Source: Campylobacterales bacterium (GTDB lineage: Bacteria > Campylobacterota > Campylobacteria > Campylobacterales > QNZT01). Taken from it: 60,000 nt of DNA. The DNA is taken from positions 85,333 through 145,332 of the forward strand of contig JALVVN010000038.1 in assembly GCA_027023405.1 (NCBI GenBank), read 5' to 3'. The number at the start of each line of letters is the position of its first letter. The first letter of the stretch is position 1. Positions 33,466 through 39,567 of the stretch are shown in pieces. The translations under genes and the position numbers were made by a program. The notes beneath the pieces were generated by a model. It made no database searches. It was not told the origin of the DNA and saw nothing but the letters and a program-made list of their open reading frames with translations.

Positions 33466-35685
33466 ATGAAAATAGATATTCGGACAATAGCTTTCTCATT
33501 AGCCACGGTGGCGACACTCATAGGTTGTGGTGGATCTAATGTGGCAAATGAACGGAGTTCACTCAGTGAACCGATTGTGCCGTTGGCAACAAAAGTGACT
33601 AGGGCTGACTGGACAGGTGTAGAACCGGTTGCAAACGGTTTTTTTATCACGAACGACAATTCACTTTTGTCATTTAAAATAAAAGATCAACATATTGCTG
33701 ACAATAGTTACCATAGTGAAATTATCCTAATTGATGCAGATCATAATGCACAAACCGGTTATCACAATCAGAGATGGGGAGATATCGGTGCAGAGTATTT
33801 GATCGAAGGGAATAGTCTTTATAGTTATACGGGAACACGAGAGGAGTGGAGTTGGAATTTTGTGGCTCGTGTTTCTCGAAGAGTCATTGATGGTCAGAAT
33901 GATGAGCTAGAGGTTGAGTTCCCTCGTTCACTTATTCAAACGCCTGACAACCAAATTAGTGCGGAAGCTGCATTAACCGATGAGAATTGGGCGACATTGA
34001 CTGCTACGGATATTGTCAATTATGAACTTACCGGTGACGGTGTTGTTGAAAATAGCTTTCAGCTAACAGATAGCGAACAGCAGATTGATTTTACCATGCA
34101 AAGCGCTTTTATCACATCTGCTGATTTTAGAGCCACTGCAATTTTTATCGATGCAGATAATAATCCTCAAACGGGGTATCGTAATGAGAGATGGGATAAT
34201 ATCGGTGCAGAATATTTAATCATTGACGGTGCGGTTTATAGTTACGGCGGAGAGGGATGGAGTTGGAATTTTCTCTCTAATGTTCAGAGAGATATTCAAG
34301 ATACAAATGCTCATATTGTAGTGAATAAAGAGGGATTAACCTTAGGAAATACAATCCGAACGGTTGCAGGTATTTTGGATCAAAATTGGCAAGTAATGTT
34401 CCGATACGATCTGAGTTCAGCAACGATTACAGGAAATCAACCGGAACCACTTCCGCAAGCTACTATTCAAGATAGCATGAGCCAAATGCAAATTGTTCTT
34501 CAAAGTGAGGAGATTGCAAACGGTAATGCGGCACTAGAAACGATCTTTATTGATACAGATAATAATCCTCAAACCGGGTATAGTAATGCTAGACTTGATT
34601 ATGGTGCGATGGGCGCGGATTATATGATCCAAGGTGACATTGTCTATCACTACAACGGTGAGGGATGGAGCTGGAGTCGTATCGGAAATGCCACCGTTAC
34701 AAGAGAAAATGATACGATGCATATCGTTTTTGACAAACTACCGCTTCATTTTGGTGCAAACATTCGTCTGTTCCCTACTTTGACCGATGCCAATTGGCAA
34801 ACAGTTACGCGTTATGCGGAAGTAGATGTCACACCGATGCAACCTGCAGAGGGAGTGACCGTACGACATGATCTCAACTTCTTTTGGTTTGGTATGCAAA
34901 ATGACAATCTTACACTCAATGATACAATGCAAACCGAAATTTATATTGATGAAGATGACAATCCCAACACCGGATTTGAGATTAACGGTATCGGGGCAGA
35001 GTATCGTATAGTCAATGATCGTGCATTTGCGCTCAGAGGTAACGGCGAATGGGGAGATCTGCTCAACGGTGAAGATAGTGCTGTTGTCTATCAACGAGGA
35101 GAACATGGTGTCAATGTTCGCACACGAAGATCGCAGCTTCGTTACACACATAGACATATTGCGGTAACTGGAAGAGTAGTTGATGAGAATAACAATGAAG
35201 TCTTTGCTTTCACACCGACACACTATGTCGTTCAAGCGGATAATGATGAGATTACGCTTAATCTTGACAATCCTGACTATTATACATTTGAATTTCATTC
35301 ACCCCTGATTCAAGAAGCGCATTTTGGTCACGATGCCGTAGATGATTTGGTGACTAGTCTACATTTGGCAATCGATTTGGATAATAATCGTTTTACAGGG
35401 AACCAAATGAATGCGGTAGGTGCAGACTATTTTACAGGATCTTGGTCATCTCATAGAGAGCTTTATCACTTTATCGGTACAGAAGGTACACATAGTTGGT
35501 GGGAGCGATGGGAAACTGTAGATGACAGTGATACGATTGTAACCGTGCAAGATGGATTGGTCACGATTGCTATTCCAAGAAGCGCCCTACCAGTTAGCGG
35601 TCCTTTTACGGTAGCGAGTACTTTCAATGACAGCCACGGTCATTTTTACTGGACTAACCACTATGAGTTTGATTTAGGAAATTAG
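33466..35685 (+). CDS. Large lipoprotein with five tandem ~130-aa beta-rich repeats
   Basis: Lipobox LIGC; five copies of ID.D.N..TG...GA[ED]Y; SD AAGGAG. Confidence 0.85.
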   Translation: MKIDIRTIAFSLATVATLIGCGGSNVANERSSLSEPIVPLATKVTRADWTGVEPVANGFFITNDNSLLSFKIKDQHIADNSYHSEIILIDADHNAQTGYHNQRWGDIGAEYLIEGNSLYSYTGTREEWSWNFVARVSRRVIDGQNDELEVEFPRSLIQTPDNQISAEAALTDENWATLTATDIVNYELTGDGVVENSFQLTDSEQQIDFTMQSAFITSADFRATAIFIDADNNPQTGYRNERWDNIGAEYLIIDGAVYSYGGEGWSWNFLSNVQRDIQDTNAHIVVNKEGLTLGNTIRTVAGILDQNWQVMFRYDLSSATITGNQPEPLPQATIQDSMSQMQIVLQSEEIANGNAALETIFIDTDNNPQTGYSNARLDYGAMGADYMIQGDIVYHYNGEGWSWSRIGNATVTRENDTMHIVFDKLPLHFGANIRLFPTLTDANWQTVTRYAEVDVTPMQPAEGVTVRHDLNFFWFGMQNDNLTLNDTMQTEIYIDEDDNPNTGFEINGIGAEYRIVNDRAFALRGNGEWGDLLNGEDSAVVYQRGEHGVNVRTRRSQLRYTHRHIAVTGRVVDENNNEVFAFTPTHYVVQADNDEITLNLDNPDYYTFEFHSPLIQEAHFGHDAVDDLVTSLHLAIDLDNNRFTGNQMNAVGADYFTGSWSSHRELYHFIGTEGTHSWWERWETVDDSDTIVTVQDGLVTIAIPRSALPVSGPFTVASTFNDSHGHFYWTNHYEFDLGN

Positions 35686-35778: not shown

Positions 35779-36228
35779 ATGGTTGATATCTTTTCCGTTA
35801 TTTTGATAGGATCTCTCGTGACCTTTTTGATGTATCAAAACATCAATAAAGTGACACAAAAGATCGAACAAAGTAGCAACGACAAACACCCCAGCTTTTC
35901 TAAATTTGCCACCAAAATTATCGAGACGATCCGAGAAGTAAAAAAAGATCTTGATAGCGATATGGAGTGTGAAAATCCTCACTTTTGCAAAAATGATCAG
36001 TGTGATGAAAAAGAGGTAATTAAAGCCTTAAACGACTTGATACGAAGAGCCTCCTTTTATGAGGGTGAGCGAGCGAAAAGTTTTTCTCGCAGAGAGGCGG
36101 AGGCGGAATTTGTGGATATTCTGCAAAAGTTTGAAGAGATTGTTCGGCACTCCTGCATAAATGGTCAAGAAGAGGCCTTAAAACTTAAAGATGAACTCCA
36201 TAAATCCTATCAAGAACTTATAGGATAA
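35779..36228 (+). CDS. Hypothetical membrane-anchored helical protein
   Basis: N-terminal TM helix and helical body with four Cys; 3 nt before the arginyltransferase gene. Confidence 0.75.
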   Translation: MVDIFSVILIGSLVTFLMYQNINKVTQKIEQSSNDKHPSFSKFATKIIETIREVKKDLDSDMECENPHFCKNDQCDEKEVIKALNDLIRRASFYEGERAKSFSRREAEAEFVDILQKFEEIVRHSCINGQEEALKLKDELHKSYQELIG

Positions 36229-36231
36229 GTT

Positions 36232-36975
36232 GTGCAAAAGATCCCCTTTTGCAACTATGATGTCATAGAGTTTACGACACTGGAGACACAGTGTGTCTAT
36301 CTTCCGCAAGAGCGTATGCAGATGCGTTACAAATATATCTACAATGCTCCCAAGAGTGTTGCTTCACAATTGACAGTGCAAGGGTGGCGCCGTTTTGGTC
36401 ACTACTTCTCCAGACCGGCATGTCAAGCGTGTCATGCATGTTTGAGTCTTCGAATTGATGTCAATCGTTTTTCGTTTAGCCGATCAGCCAGACGCACAAT
36501 GCAAAAAAATAGTCACACCACACATCGTATCACGACGCCGCAGATCAGTGATGCGCATTTGGCACTCTATGAAAAATATCATCTCTTTAAACAGAAAAAA
36601 GAGGGGTGGGACTACTATCCGATTACACAAGAGGGGTATGAAGATCTCTATCTCAAAGGTGATCCGTCTTACGCACGAGAGGTCTCCTATTATCTTCACA
36701 ATCGGCTCATTGGTGTGGATTTGATTGATATACTTGAAGATGGTATTTCAGCGATCTACTTCTACTATGATCCGGATTTTTCGCATCTCTCATTGGGACG
36801 CTACTCGATCTATCGACAGATTGAGATGGCAAAAGAGATGGGATTAGCTTGGATCTATCTTGGGTATAGTGTGGATAGTTGTAAAAGTTTAAATTATAAA
36901 CTGCAGTTTAAACCTCACCAAATTCTTTACGATCGTCCTGAGCTTGAGCAAGTGGCAAACTGGCGGGTATCTTAG
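36232..36975 (+). CDS. Arginyl-tRNA-protein transferase family (Ate/Bpt)
   Basis: CVYLP, GWRRFG.YFSRPAC..C..C.SLRIDV, SAIYFYYDPD, YLGY...C.SL.YK. Confidence 0.92.
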   Translation: MQKIPFCNYDVIEFTTLETQCVYLPQERMQMRYKYIYNAPKSVASQLTVQGWRRFGHYFSRPACQACHACLSLRIDVNRFSFSRSARRTMQKNSHTTHRITTPQISDAHLALYEKYHLFKQKKEGWDYYPITQEGYEDLYLKGDPSYAREVSYYLHNRLIGVDLIDILEDGISAIYFYYDPDFSHLSLGRYSIYRQIEMAKEMGLAWIYLGYSVDSCKSLNYKLQFKPHQILYDRPELEQVANWRVS

Positions 36976-37361
36976 TAGCTCTTTTTTCGAAGGTAAGTGG
37001 GCAAATCCAAATCATCCTCTACCCTACTTTTATGTATAATATTACTTTGATGAATCGGTATTTGAATCTCCTCTAGTTTCATCTCTTCCGTTGCTTGTTG
37101 TGTTGCTTGCGGCGTTTTGTTAACTTCTACCGACTCAACCGGCTGTGTGGTAAGATCACGCTTTTTGCCGAGTCCCTGCATAATCTTTTGCGCCTCCTCC
37201 TGATCGATAGCACCCATTTTTATCAGGGCATAACTAAGCCCCTCACAAAAACCTTTGAGTCGCCATGAAGACTCCGGATCGTGATCTGCTTTGAGGGTAT
37301 AGAAGCGATCGACAACATCGATAAGAGAGTTGATAAGCTTCTTTTGTGTAAAATCATCCAT
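36972..37361 (-). CDS. Hypothetical protein with FtsZ-like C-terminal peptide
   Basis: Helical N-terminal ~67 aa, Q/T/E-rich linker, C-terminus EDDLDLPTYLRKKSY; TATAAT 6 nt before the ATG. Confidence 0.75.
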   Translation of the reverse strand: MDDFTQKKLINSLIDVVDRFYTLKADHDPESSWRLKGFCEGLSYALIKMGAIDQEEAQKIMQGLGKKRDLTTQPVESVEVNKTPQATQQATEEMKLEEIQIPIHQSNIIHKSRVEDDLDLPTYLRKKSY

Positions 37362-37393
37362 TCATCAATTATAACCAAAGGTAGATAAGTTTT

Positions 37394-38119
37394 ATGGCGC
37401 TACGAGAGATAGCATACCGCGACCGACACTTTAGTATCAGTTATTCGATTTACCACCACAATAAAGCAGACACCCTGCTCTTTTTGCACGGTTGGGGAAG
37501 CAACAAAGAGATTATGGCGCAAGCCTTTGCCAAACAGCTGCCGGAGTATCGGCTTCTCTTTGTCGATCTGCCCGGTTTTGGTCAAAGCCCCAACGACTAC
37601 CCCTTGACAACGGAGGATTATGCAAAGATTATGCAACTTTTTTTAGAGCAGATGCGTATCCGACCCTGTGCGATTGCGGGACACTCATTTGGCGGAAAGG
37701 TTGCGACACTGCTTCAACCACCGACACTAATCCTACTAAGTTCTGCCGGTATTGTCGTGCCAAAATCTCTCAAAGTGCGCCTGAAGATCAGACTTTTCAA
37801 GATGCTCAAACCTTTGGGCGGATCGGCGCTACGCAAATATTTTGTCTCAAAAGATGCCAATGAGATGAGTGAAGCGATGTATCAAACCTTCAAAAATGTG
37901 GTGGATGAGGATTTTACTCCTCACTTTCAATCCTATCAAGGTCGCGCACTTCTCTTTTGGGGAAAGCATGATCAAGCGACACCGCTTCATAGCGGAGAGA
38001 CGATTGCTTCACTGATCCAAGATGCAAAATTCTACCCTTTAGAGGGAGATCACTTCTTCTTCCTCAAGCACTCCCCCTTTATCGCCCAAACTATCGAACA
38101 GGAGCTATCATCTTGCTAG
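37394..38119 (+). CDS. Alpha/beta fold hydrolase
   Basis: LHGWG, DLPGFG, GHSFGG, GDHFFF; overlaps murF. Confidence 0.9.
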   Translation: MALREIAYRDRHFSISYSIYHHNKADTLLFLHGWGSNKEIMAQAFAKQLPEYRLLFVDLPGFGQSPNDYPLTTEDYAKIMQLFLEQMRIRPCAIAGHSFGGKVATLLQPPTLILLSSAGIVVPKSLKVRLKIRLFKMLKPLGGSALRKYFVSKDANEMSEAMYQTFKNVVDEDFTPHFQSYQGRALLFWGKHDQATPLHSGETIASLIQDAKFYPLEGDHFFFLKHSPFIAQTIEQELSSC

Positions 38120-39567
38120 AGACACTCTTTCAAATCACATCACACATCCTCTTTACCTTTGCCCTCGCCTACTACCTGATGACCAATCTCCAATGGTACC
38201 ACTACAAATTTGGTCGTGTGATCCTCCATCACAACAAAACGCTTTGGCATCTGCTCTACTTTTTGGTGCCCCTTTTTCTCTATATTCTCTTTTCGCTCAA
38301 AGGGATACTCAACTATTTTTGGATCGTCTTTTATCTCGGATATCTACCCGCTCTCTACCTTTGGCAGAAAAAACTTGACAAACCCCTTGTCCTAACTTCG
38401 AGAGTCAAGCGTTTTTTTGGCTTTTTACTGTTTGCACTACTGGTTTCCGATAGCCTCTGTGCGATGAGTAGCAAATGTGCCCATTTTGGGTCGATCCTAC
38501 CGCTGGTTGTCGCTTGGTTTGCTTCATTGGCATATGAAAAGATACTCTTTAGCGGTTTTTACAAACGCGCCCAAAAGCGACTCCAATCTGATCACAAACT
38601 CAAGATCATCGCCGTGACGGCAAGCTACGGCAAAACCAGCATCAAAAACTTTCTCTACCAAATCCTCTCTCAACAGTTTCACTGCTACAAAACCCCACGA
38701 AGTGTCAATACCCTCGCCGGACTTGTAAAAGATGTCAATGAGAATCTTAAAGAGGGGGTTGAGATCTATATCGCCGAAGCGGGAGCACGAGAGCGGGGAG
38801 ATATCGATGAGATCGCGCGTTTTTTAGAGGAGCACTATGCGGTTGTCGGCAGTATTGGTCCGGCACATATCGAGTATTTTAAAACTTTAGAGAATATTCG
38901 AAATACCAAGATGGAGATTTTGCACTCCAAACGCCTTAAAAAAGCGTTTGTACACCAAAGTGCCAATATCAAGCCGACTAAAAATATTGTCGTTTTTGGA
39001 GCTGAGATCAAAAATATTGAAGCTGATCTGCAAGGATTGCGCTTTGAGATGGAGCTGGAGGGCGAGATACATCGATTTGAGACACCGCTCTTGGGAAGCT
39101 TTCACGCGCAAAACCTTGCAGCCGCCATACACATCGCACGAGAGTTTGGACTATCTATCAATGAGATCCAAAAGGCACTCAAAAAGCTCCAACCCACGGA
39201 GCATCGACTCCAAAAGATCGAAGCGGGTGGTAAACTCATCATTGATGATAGCTTTAACGGTAATTTTGAAGGGATGAGAGACTCCTATGAGCTGGTCAAA
39301 AAGTATAAGGGAAGAAAGGTGCTGATCACGCCGGGGATCATTGAGAGTGATGATGAAACCAATATTAGACTTGCCAACAAGATAGATGAGGTGTTTGATC
39401 TGGTAATCATTACAGGAGAACGAAATCGACGCCTTCTAGATCATGAGATCACAAAGGCAAAAAAGATCATTCTCAAAGAGAAGGGAGAGCTTCAAGATCT
39501 ACTCGCGCAAGAGACACGAAGCGGTGATCTAATCCTCTTCTCCAACGATGCACCGACCTTTATTTAA
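38113..39567 (+). CDS. murF: Mur ligase (MurF-type) with N-terminal membrane segments
   Basis: VTASYGKTSIK P-loop, TPRSVNT, EAGAR, HRLQ, IIDDSFNGN; N-terminal TMs as in Campylobacterota MurF. Confidence 0.85.
   Translation: MLETLFQITSHILFTFALAYYLMTNLQWYHYKFGRVILHHNKTLWHLLYFLVPLFLYILFSLKGILNYFWIVFYLGYLPALYLWQKKLDKPLVLTSRVKRFFGFLLFALLVSDSLCAMSSKCAHFGSILPLVVAWFASLAYEKILFSGFYKRAQKRLQSDHKLKIIAVTASYGKTSIKNFLYQILSQQFHCYKTPRSVNTLAGLVKDVNENLKEGVEIYIAEAGARERGDIDEIARFLEEHYAVVGSIGPAHIEYFKTLENIRNTKMEILHSKRLKKAFVHQSANIKPTKNIVVFGAEIKNIEADLQGLRFEMELEGEIHRFETPLLGSFHAQNLAAAIHIAREFGLSINEIQKALKKLQPTEHRLQKIEAGGKLIIDDSFNGNFEGMRDSYELVKKYKGRKVLITPGIIESDDETNIRLANKIDEVFDLVIITGERNRRLLDHEITKAKKIILKEKGELQDLLAQETRSGDLILFSNDAPTFI

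Follow-up and report, generated by a model that had tools for sequence, protein, structure and literature searches.

A small protein family of Campylobacterales with an FtsZ-type C-terminal peptide on a disordered tether

Membrane anchors and spatial regulators keep hold of the Z-ring through the C-terminal peptide of FtsZ, which serves as their common hub, and the locus described here raises the question of what a peptide of this kind is doing at the end of a quite different, small protein. The gene (36972-37361, minus strand; 129 amino acids (aa), ATG start, C-terminal end RVEDDLDLPTYLRKKSY) lies in a 60,000-nucleotide stretch of a Campylobacterales genome (assembly GCA_027023405.1, contig JALVVN010000038.1, positions 85,333 to 145,332), the whole of which is referred to as the window; the genome that holds it comprises 2.03 Mb in 44 contigs and is 99.9% complete. 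An earlier note, made from the letters of the window alone, had described the product as an orphan that copies the linker-plus-peptide layout of FtsZ, and had put it forward as a candidate FtsZ-tail mimic or division regulator. We find that it is a bipartite small protein, in which a conserved three-helix domain is joined to an FtsZ-type docking peptide by a disordered tether of variable length, and that it belongs to a previously unnamed and unannotated family, for which Pfam, NCBIfam, PHROGs and PADLOC hold no model. The gene is real, conserved and, on comparison of its homologues, under purifying selection. Its features are as follows (pLDDT, predicted local distance difference test; GTDB, Genome Taxonomy Database).

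36972-37361, minus strand: whole coding sequence, 129 aa plus the stop codon at 36972-36974; 36 relatives; found in 26/32 genomes of the GTDB family
37161-37361, minus strand: N-terminal domain, residues 1-67; three-helix bundle; helix 2 carries the invariant segment LKGFCEG (GxxxG), and the domain ends in GLGKK
37014-37160, minus strand: disordered linker, residues 68-116; pLDDT below 50 over residues 76-117; variable in length and sequence
36975-37013, minus strand: C-terminal FtsZ-type peptide, residues 117-129, DLDLPTYLRKKSY; recognised by motif scans, conservation and profile matches to FtsZ tails

The C-terminal peptide, its tether and its head domain

The genome's own FtsZ (377 aa) is encoded outside the window, on contig C31, where its gene adjoins that of a 453-aa FtsA, and it ends in TTDLDYPTFLRNQMD. 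The corresponding C-terminal peptide of the small protein is DLDLPTYLRK. Among all six-frame open reading frames (ORFs) of at least 50 aa in the genome (1,619,187 aa), the pattern [DE][ILVYFM]P[TSAP][FYILVMW][LIFMV]R[KRNQ] occurs at exactly two sites, FtsZ and the small protein, and the two tails are equally distant from the C-terminus, each lying three residues from it. When the 12-residue FtsZ tail was scored with BLOSUM62 against 1,452,498 peptide windows, the small protein was the top non-self match (39, against 34 for the next), so that the likeness to an FtsZ tail claimed in the earlier note extends to the carrier's own FtsZ. By chance, a strict 10-residue form of the motif ([DEN]L[DE]-hydrophobic-P-[TSA]-hydrophobic-hydrophobic-R-[KRNQ]) should occur 0.009 times in the whole of these ORFs and 0.0005 times near the C-terminus of one, and the match of the tail therefore exceeds chance. 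A BLASTP comparison of the small protein with its own FtsZ aligned the linker and tail of both (residues 60-127 with 314-375) at an E-value of 0.008, as a single comparison.

Searches with a profile of the whole family led to the same place. Against 177,635 sequences of the Protein Data Bank (PDB) the best match was B. subtilis FtsZ, through its tail LDIPTFLRNRN (E 0.072), and FtsZ tails made up 4 of the 11 PDB matches listed. Against 401 genomes of the class, there were 10 weak matches of the linker-tail part in ORFs of 371-436 aa, and the two of these that were inspected were both FtsZ, with the ends DVLDIPTFLRKQMD and DELDTPTYLRNQKD. None of the E-values to FtsZ tails is significant singly; the argument is that nothing else recurs. 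The likeness has its own pattern of variation. The FtsZ tail of the window's GTDB family is nearly constant, reading DLDYPTFLR in 19 of the 27 genomes from which it was recovered, whereas the small-protein tails in those genomes vary (PTYL, PTFL, PTFI, PTFM, PTIF and PTVF), and the small protein has L, I or V at the position before the proline where FtsZ of the family mostly has Y. A recent duplication of the 3' end of ftsZ is not supported, given this difference and a tail that is closer to the generic bacterial peptide than to that of its own FtsZ.

The AlphaFold2 model of the small protein, built with a 36-row alignment, consists of three helices (residues 3-25, 29-48 and 54-61) with pLDDT values of 82-94 over residues 1-70, followed by an unstructured stretch over residues 76-117 and a short helical turn at residues 122-124. 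The last nine residues have a mean pLDDT of 61, higher than that of the linker. The helical domain of about 67 aa and the disordered linker described from the letters alone are thus recovered in the model. The linker had also been called rich in Q, T, E and P; E (7 residues), Q (6) and T (5) are indeed enriched over residues 68-116, as is I (5), but P, with only 3, is not notably so. Pfam and NCBIfam gave no match to the small protein at E-values up to 1, and no family recurred when 23 members of its family were searched against Pfam at E-values up to 10. A tubulin-type GTPase domain (Pfam Tubulin and FtsZ_C) is absent, both by the Pfam and NCBIfam searches at E up to 1 and by the AlphaFold2 model, which with the motif scans confirms a linker-plus-peptide layout lacking that domain. 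The known Z-ring regulator families (ZapA, ZapD, SepF, ZipA, MinC, SulA, EzrA and similar Pfam entries) likewise gave no match at E up to 1.

The N-terminal domain has only generic neighbours in fold searches. Foldseek found no PDB match to it at E up to 0.001, the nearest row for residues 1-64 being YlaN (UPF0358) of S. aureus (2odm; E 1.1, template modelling score 0.61 normalised to the target). The best Z in a wide VIA-align search was 8.4, for the p85 iSH2 coiled coil, with YlaN at 7.8 (root-mean-square deviation 2.1 over 63 residues), and Z values of 7.8-8.4 are in a range common for unrelated helical bundles. YlaN, bS20 and MIT-type three-helix bundles are accordingly the nearest fold rows at scores that helical bundles commonly reach, and the domain was given no fold-based function, sequence identity to the nearest rows being 18-20%. 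The best score for the domain in the ESM Atlas was 0.81, under the lead threshold of 0.9. An assignment to YnzC / UPF0291 was not adopted either: the profile match to 2hep (E 0.082) covers 35 residues centred on YLKGF, and no Pfam support for it was found in the 23 members. Part of the family shows another stretch of conservation, weaker than the tail and 10-15 residues ahead of it (residues ~103-113 of the window protein), with examples such as I-H-Q-S-N-I-I, L-H-S-S-L-I-S and E-E-I-F-x-P-Q; it is missing in the PTIF and PTVF subgroups, and it could be a second contact site.

The word orphan proved too strong. A word-indexed search of 5.8 billion proteins returned 40 candidates, among them 36 relatives of 97-147 aa with uninformative names, two being automatically named 'predicted ATP-dependent Lon-type protease', and together with the branches described below the protein belongs to a small superfamily of three branches. 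In an alignment of the window protein and 35 relatives (P0001, 98% identical, was omitted) there are 25 invariant columns, of which 22 are in the N-terminal domain, including LKGFCEG, and three in the tail (L118, P121 and R125); D119, T122 and K126 of the tail are at least 90% conserved. The expectation that the tail is conserved while the linker drifts was borne out over 56 distinct sequences from the database and from genome copies, all of which (56/56) keep L[DE][LIVT]P[TSA]xxR, followed by 1-15 residues, on linkers of 21-69 aa. The N-terminal domain and the tail core have mean pairwise identities of 66% and 71%, the linker one of 12%. Disorder of the preceding chain, a gain in model confidence only at the motif, a place at the extreme C-terminus whatever the length of the linker, and purifying selection fit a tethered docking peptide.

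Remoter branches keep the same two parts. HMMER with the family profile against 1.84 billion representatives gave only 24 proteins at E up to 0.001; the weakest true matches (P0048, P0049, P0051, P0052 and P0055; 76-132 aa) retain an xKG[FYI][CS]xG helix and a D-[TIV]-P-[TSA]-I-[FYL]-R end, and in P0051 and P0052 (76 and 80 aa) the linker is near zero, so that the tail comes almost directly after the domain. The profile search of the 401 class genomes also found a 110-aa ORF in genome G392 that ends in DFDEPTIFRKRR. Around it a sister family of proteins of about 97 aa could be delimited in Sulfurimonas-type genomes, with 36 database relatives of its own, and D-x-P-T-I-[FL]-R is kept in 20 of 22 aligned sequences. 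Alignments of the window family and the sister family match each other in hhalign with a probability of 96.3% and an E-value of 1.7e-9, tail included. FtsZ of Sulfurimonas ends in LDIPSYMRQQQD, and the sister-family relatives read D[EQ]PTI[FL]R; the E or Q of this motif is polar where FtsZ carries a hydrophobic residue. Matches judged spurious were a weak one in a 663-aa ORF of G354, P0050 (670 aa), P0054 (235 aa, with repeats) and ORFs of ~650 and ~480 aa. A separate observation concerns G392, which besides its sister-family tail protein has a second, shorter FtsZ-like ORF (locus L107, G392:C10:123657-127367): this 323-aa frame shares 40% identity with FtsZ across residues 85-321 and lacks the C-terminal peptide.

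Distribution, gene neighbourhood and predicted leaderless expression

The first profile matched 3 of the 401 sampled genomes of the class, the window's own among them, and one of the three was a weak, spurious match. Within the window's GTDB family the gene is common: it was found in 26 of 32 genomes, in 14 of 18 high-quality genomes and in 5 of 8 genera. The 23 loci of a named genome collection all come from metagenome-assembled genomes of uncultured Campylobacterales, some of them labelled Sulfurospirillum, and EstV is the neighbour in 20 of these; seven sequencing runs are listed for the window stretch, all of DNA or guessed to be so, from hydrothermal-vent metagenomes. The Sulfurimonas branch is sporadic (4/151 genomes). 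Two of its four loci lie directly downstream of a gene for a WYL-WCX regulator, one of these near an AbiEii gene; a third is on a 49.8-kb plasmid of S. paralvinellae (NZ_CP041407.1), where the product is annotated 'hypothetical protein', and the fourth is in another variable region. A tblastn search of 50,697 phage records gave no match and PADLOC none; PHROGs gave none for the window protein and, for its Sulfurimonas relative, one weak match of unknown function (E 0.0048).

In the window the gene stands between a convergent arginyltransferase gene and a divergent pair.

36232-36975, plus strand: arginyltransferase gene, convergent with the small-protein gene; Pfam ATE_N and ATE_C, NCBIfam NF002344
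37394-38119, plus strand: EstV-family lipase, the divergent neighbour; NCBIfam NF058580, E 4.1e-105
38113-39567, plus strand: MurF-type Mur ligase, after EstV; Pfam Mur_ligase_M/C
37368-37373, minus strand: -10 hexamer TATAAT, 6 nt upstream of the ATG of the small-protein gene, with no Shine-Dalgarno sequence; inside the 32-bp gap shared with EstV-MurF

The stop codons of the arginyltransferase and small-protein genes share 4 nt (36972-36975), which leaves a terminator no space, and the 3' ends of the two transcripts must therefore overlap. At the other end, the start codons of the small protein (37361) and EstV (37394) are separated by exactly 32 bp, as the earlier note had read the divergence from what it called a hydrolase-murF operon. 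Divergence of the small gene from EstV recurs at 23 of the 26 family loci; two of the others are at a contig edge and one, in G428, has a different upstream region. The position is also kept in the short-linker branch, where at locus L069 the gene lies between ddl and EstV-acylphosphatase-MurF. In the three genera without the gene, arginyltransferase abuts EstV directly in two, and argG precedes EstV in the third; since the flanking genes adjoin where it is missing, the small gene looks like an insertion or deletion at one fixed spot. At two such loci, L059 and L060 (G403 and G402), the arginyltransferase gene runs into that of EstV on the same strand, with overlapping ends. Because the genomes are kin with conserved gene order, the EstV-MurF neighbourhood is weak evidence for a functional link, and we treat these neighbours as context, with a putative part at most in what the small protein does.

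Some other genes of the neighbourhood may be recorded here. The MurF-type ligase begins with a TTG codon that overlaps the EstV stop, and has a hydrophobic N-terminal extension of about 140 aa, membrane-embedded in appearance, before Mur_ligase_M/C; the extension is kept in the loci of relatives. Upstream of the arginyltransferase gene, a 149-aa ORF (35779-36228, plus strand) with an N-terminal hydrophobic helix and a charged helical remainder matches no Pfam family and is kept at that place in most family loci, at 37-62% identity. Further upstream still, 33466-35685 (plus strand) encodes a predicted 739-aa lipoprotein with about five tandem repeats of ~135 aa, each containing a segment of the D-x-D-x-N-P-x-T-G-Y ... 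G-A-E-Y-L-I type.

The earlier note had called the gene leaderless in appearance, and the other loci back this. In 23 of 26 loci a TAYAMT hexamer stops 5-7 nt short of the ATG, with a TG extension in 10 of the 23, and a Shine-Dalgarno-like sequence is present in one of the 26. The exceptions include L014 (G426), with a 26-nt leader carrying a GGAGG Shine-Dalgarno sequence, and L006 (G406), with a leader of ~43 nt that contains an inverted repeat. With a -10 hexamer so close to the start codon and a Shine-Dalgarno sequence almost never present, the mRNA of the small protein is likely to be leaderless and made from its own -10-only promoter, as far as the sequences can tell. A simple sigma-70 scan misses this promoter because it requires a -35 hexamer; on the plus strand it reports a site at 37330-37357 that could serve EstV, and its site count of 2 is not above that of shuffled sequences (mean 1.6).

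A proposed role at the Z-ring anchor and the explanations that compete with it

Two known receptors of the FtsZ tail, FtsA and MinC, are present in the genome, whereas ZipA, SepF and ZapD gave no match in this 99.9% complete assembly. Residues 90-129 of the small protein were co-folded with residues 1-390 of the genome's own FtsA (23-row alignment), together with three controls. The score was 0.50 (runs of 0.50, 0.50 and 0.52, sharing at least 40% of their contacts; partner pLDDT 45-48), the best of the three controls reached 0.00, and the verdict of the tool was weak support; no interface was reported for the pair. In calibration, 58 of 80 solved complexes passed, and so did 2 of 110 mismatched pairs; passes at 0.60 or under came from 7 of the 80 solved complexes and from both of those mismatched pairs, counts that hold only roughly here as custom alignments were used. 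The co-fold of tail and FtsA suggested in the earlier note thus gave weak support.

We infer the binding partner of the small protein, its effect on division and its expression along the following lines. The peptide would dock on whatever receptor or receptors bind the FtsZ tail, FtsA being the foremost candidate and MinC the next; the N-terminal domain would thereby be brought to the Z-ring's membrane anchor, and binding sites required by FtsZ would be filled. The domain, which has polar invariant residues and a GxxxG helix, is conserved as strongly as the tail, and for this reason we propose that it makes a second specific contact, either with itself, to give a multivalent protein, or with another partner. 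Since conservation of the domain points to such a contact, the protein would be a modulator or adaptor of Z-ring anchoring rather than a passive decoy. Its effect could be that of a brake or of a recruiter, and we lean towards a competitive brake. Transcription would start at the -10-only promoter and yield a leaderless mRNA, back to back with the EstV-MurF genes of cell-wall precursor supply. In a study of E. coli FtsZ fragments, free C-terminal pieces (residues 354-383) inhibit growth in vivo and are predicted to bind subdomain 2B of FtsA (PMC11831152). That the tail engages FtsA (or MinC) and modulates anchoring of the Z-ring is the explanation that we prefer to the others, and a proposition that we find evenly balanced.

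A number of observations weigh against this proposition. The loose 8-residue form of the motif is expected 0.76 times per genome from composition, and is not significant alone. No co-variation was found between the small-protein and FtsZ tails of one genome, whether in the window family or in Sulfurimonas, and neither Foldseek nor VIA-align gave the N-terminal domain a recognisable fold relative that links it to cell division. Six of the 32 family genomes (3 of 8 genera), with FtsZ tails like those of the rest, lack the gene, which is therefore dispensable. A solved complex of FtsA with the FtsZ peptide exists, and the co-fold pass may come from the model's memory of it; the calibration, moreover, rates a pass of this kind as more often wrong than right unless the pair was likely beforehand.

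These points bear differently on the explanations that compete with docking on FtsA. The tail might be a motif for a partner outside division, such as a protease or adaptor, to which it would be a degradation or targeting tag, or another hub protein, with a likeness to FtsZ that is convergent or fortuitous and a function that resides in the N-terminal domain, perhaps that of a small regulator resembling other three-helix proteins. The shortness of the motif, its loose form turning up so readily by composition, and the lack of co-variation, with E or Q in the Sulfurimonas branch where FtsZ is hydrophobic, would all suit such a partner; so would the accessory settings of that branch (the WYL-WCX regulator, the nearby AbiEii toxin-antitoxin gene and the 49.8-kb plasmid), nearest fold rows of generic helical-bundle type, YlaN (Z 7.8) and bS20 among them, and the Lon-type protease name automatically given to two database members. 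What speaks for FtsZ instead is the full 10-residue match at the same distance from the C-terminus, with its expectation of 0.0005, together with unbiased profile searches that pick FtsZ tails and nothing else recurrently, and residues at the variable position (L, I, V, T) that overlap those of FtsZ tails across the class (Y, I, V, T, M). We consider a partner outside division unlikely, if not strongly so. The tail could also act on FtsZ itself, by binding its GTPase or polymerisation face as a direct assembly inhibitor or cap, to which the N-terminal domain would add bulk or avidity. Tail likeness and conservation support this as much as they support docking on FtsA, and the absence of co-variation is neutral, neither for it nor against it. 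Two papers point the same way, FragFold predicting that E. coli FtsZ C-terminal fragments, which inhibit in vivo, bind the FtsZ GTPase site (PMC11831152) and a 2025 report describing the B. subtilis FtsZ tail as an autoinhibitor that binds the FtsZ core (PMC12747378). Our estimate for direct action on FtsZ is nevertheless a low one.

A further explanation is a special case of docking on FtsA that overlaps with it and specifies both the direction of the effect and its regulation. The protein would be a division brake of mobile origin, triggered by stress or by invaders in the manner of SulA, DidA, Kil or DicB, that has become fixed beside EstV-MurF; normally off or low, it would titrate FtsA when induced. 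The sporadic Sulfurimonas branch, with two of its four loci behind a WYL-WCX regulator and one on a plasmid, looks like this, and in Caulobacter a WYL regulator drives a small division inhibitor (DriD and didA), as described in PMC9186387 and PMC4211646. In the window family the presence or absence of the gene at one syntenic spot, with the arginyltransferase gene abutting EstV where it is absent, is of the same kind. Against this stand the strong consensus -10 promoter of the window-family gene, the absence of any regulator linked to it and its vertical conservation across 5 of the family's 8 genera, as well as the lack of a match in the phage records, in PADLOC and, for the window protein, in PHROGs. 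An inducible brake of mobile origin is in our estimate quite improbable.

Setting these alternatives aside, docking on FtsA could be taken a step further. On this extended reading the protein would be the first natural 'tail-only' mimic of FtsZ, a linker-plus-docking-peptide module copied from FtsZ, or kept from it, on a new folded head. Its peptide would compete with FtsZ for FtsA, or ride on FtsA, and so set the membrane attachment of FtsZ; chromosomal copies would couple division to the supply of wall precursors, and the plasmid and WYL-linked copies of Sulfurimonas would be inducible division brakes. We hold the extended reading tentatively and with some doubt. Searches of the open-access literature and bioRxiv found no protein other than FtsZ with an FtsZ C-terminal peptide and no FtsZ-tail mimic, though subscription journals may differ.

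Relation to known systems and significance

The nearest relation in layout is FtsZ itself, in which, as in the small protein, a disordered, fast-evolving linker of variable length is followed by a conserved peptide of about 10 residues. The two tails share D-L-D-x-P-T-[FY]-L-R-[KRN] a few residues from the C-terminus. They differ in that a domain of 67 aa and three helices, without a known family, stands in the small protein where FtsZ has its GTPase domain, that the small-protein tail is followed by basic residues and not by QMD, and that the two hydrophobic residues after P-T are more variable in it than in the family's own FtsZ. The E. coli fragments 354-383 of PMC11831152 likewise present the peptide off the polymerising domain and are active in trans; these are laboratory pieces of FtsZ, whereas the small protein occurs naturally, from a gene that has a predicted promoter of its own and codes for a conserved folded domain. 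A docking site shared with the FtsZ C-terminus by another protein has a precedent in S. aureus, where FtsZ and PBP4 are reported to share a GpsB-binding motif (PMC11062636). That case differs in motif, in receptor (GpsB) and in phylum, and PBP4 is an enzyme and not a small protein that is little more than a tail.

A second comparison is with the small division inhibitors. In size and narrow distribution, the present family invites a look at SulA, MciZ, SidA, DidA, Kil and DicB, which are small, cytoplasmic or membrane-bound, restricted to few taxa and directed at the early divisome. We know of none among them that has been described with an FtsZ C-terminal peptide. Stress regulators control some of them, as the WYL regulator DriD controls DidA, and the two Sulfurimonas-branch loci behind a WYL-WCX regulator resemble this arrangement. 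The family differs from all six in having no sequence relation to them (no Pfam or NCBIfam match), and the window copy is without a linked regulator.

To our knowledge, all described users of the FtsZ-peptide hub are receptors of the peptide. If the proposed role is correct, a protein that presents the peptide itself would represent a new logic of divisome control, in which competition or piggy-backing is achieved by mimicry of a motif, and the family would amount to a natural experiment on the length of the linker, from ~0 to ~70 residues. Bench tests are possible because there is one cultured carrier, Sulfurimonas paralvinellae, with its gene on the plasmid. What emerges is a protein family of vent-dwelling Campylobacterales that had gone unannotated. 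We know of few Z-ring regulators in the Campylobacterota, and the family, if it does act at the Z-ring, would offer a handle on cell division in this phylum.

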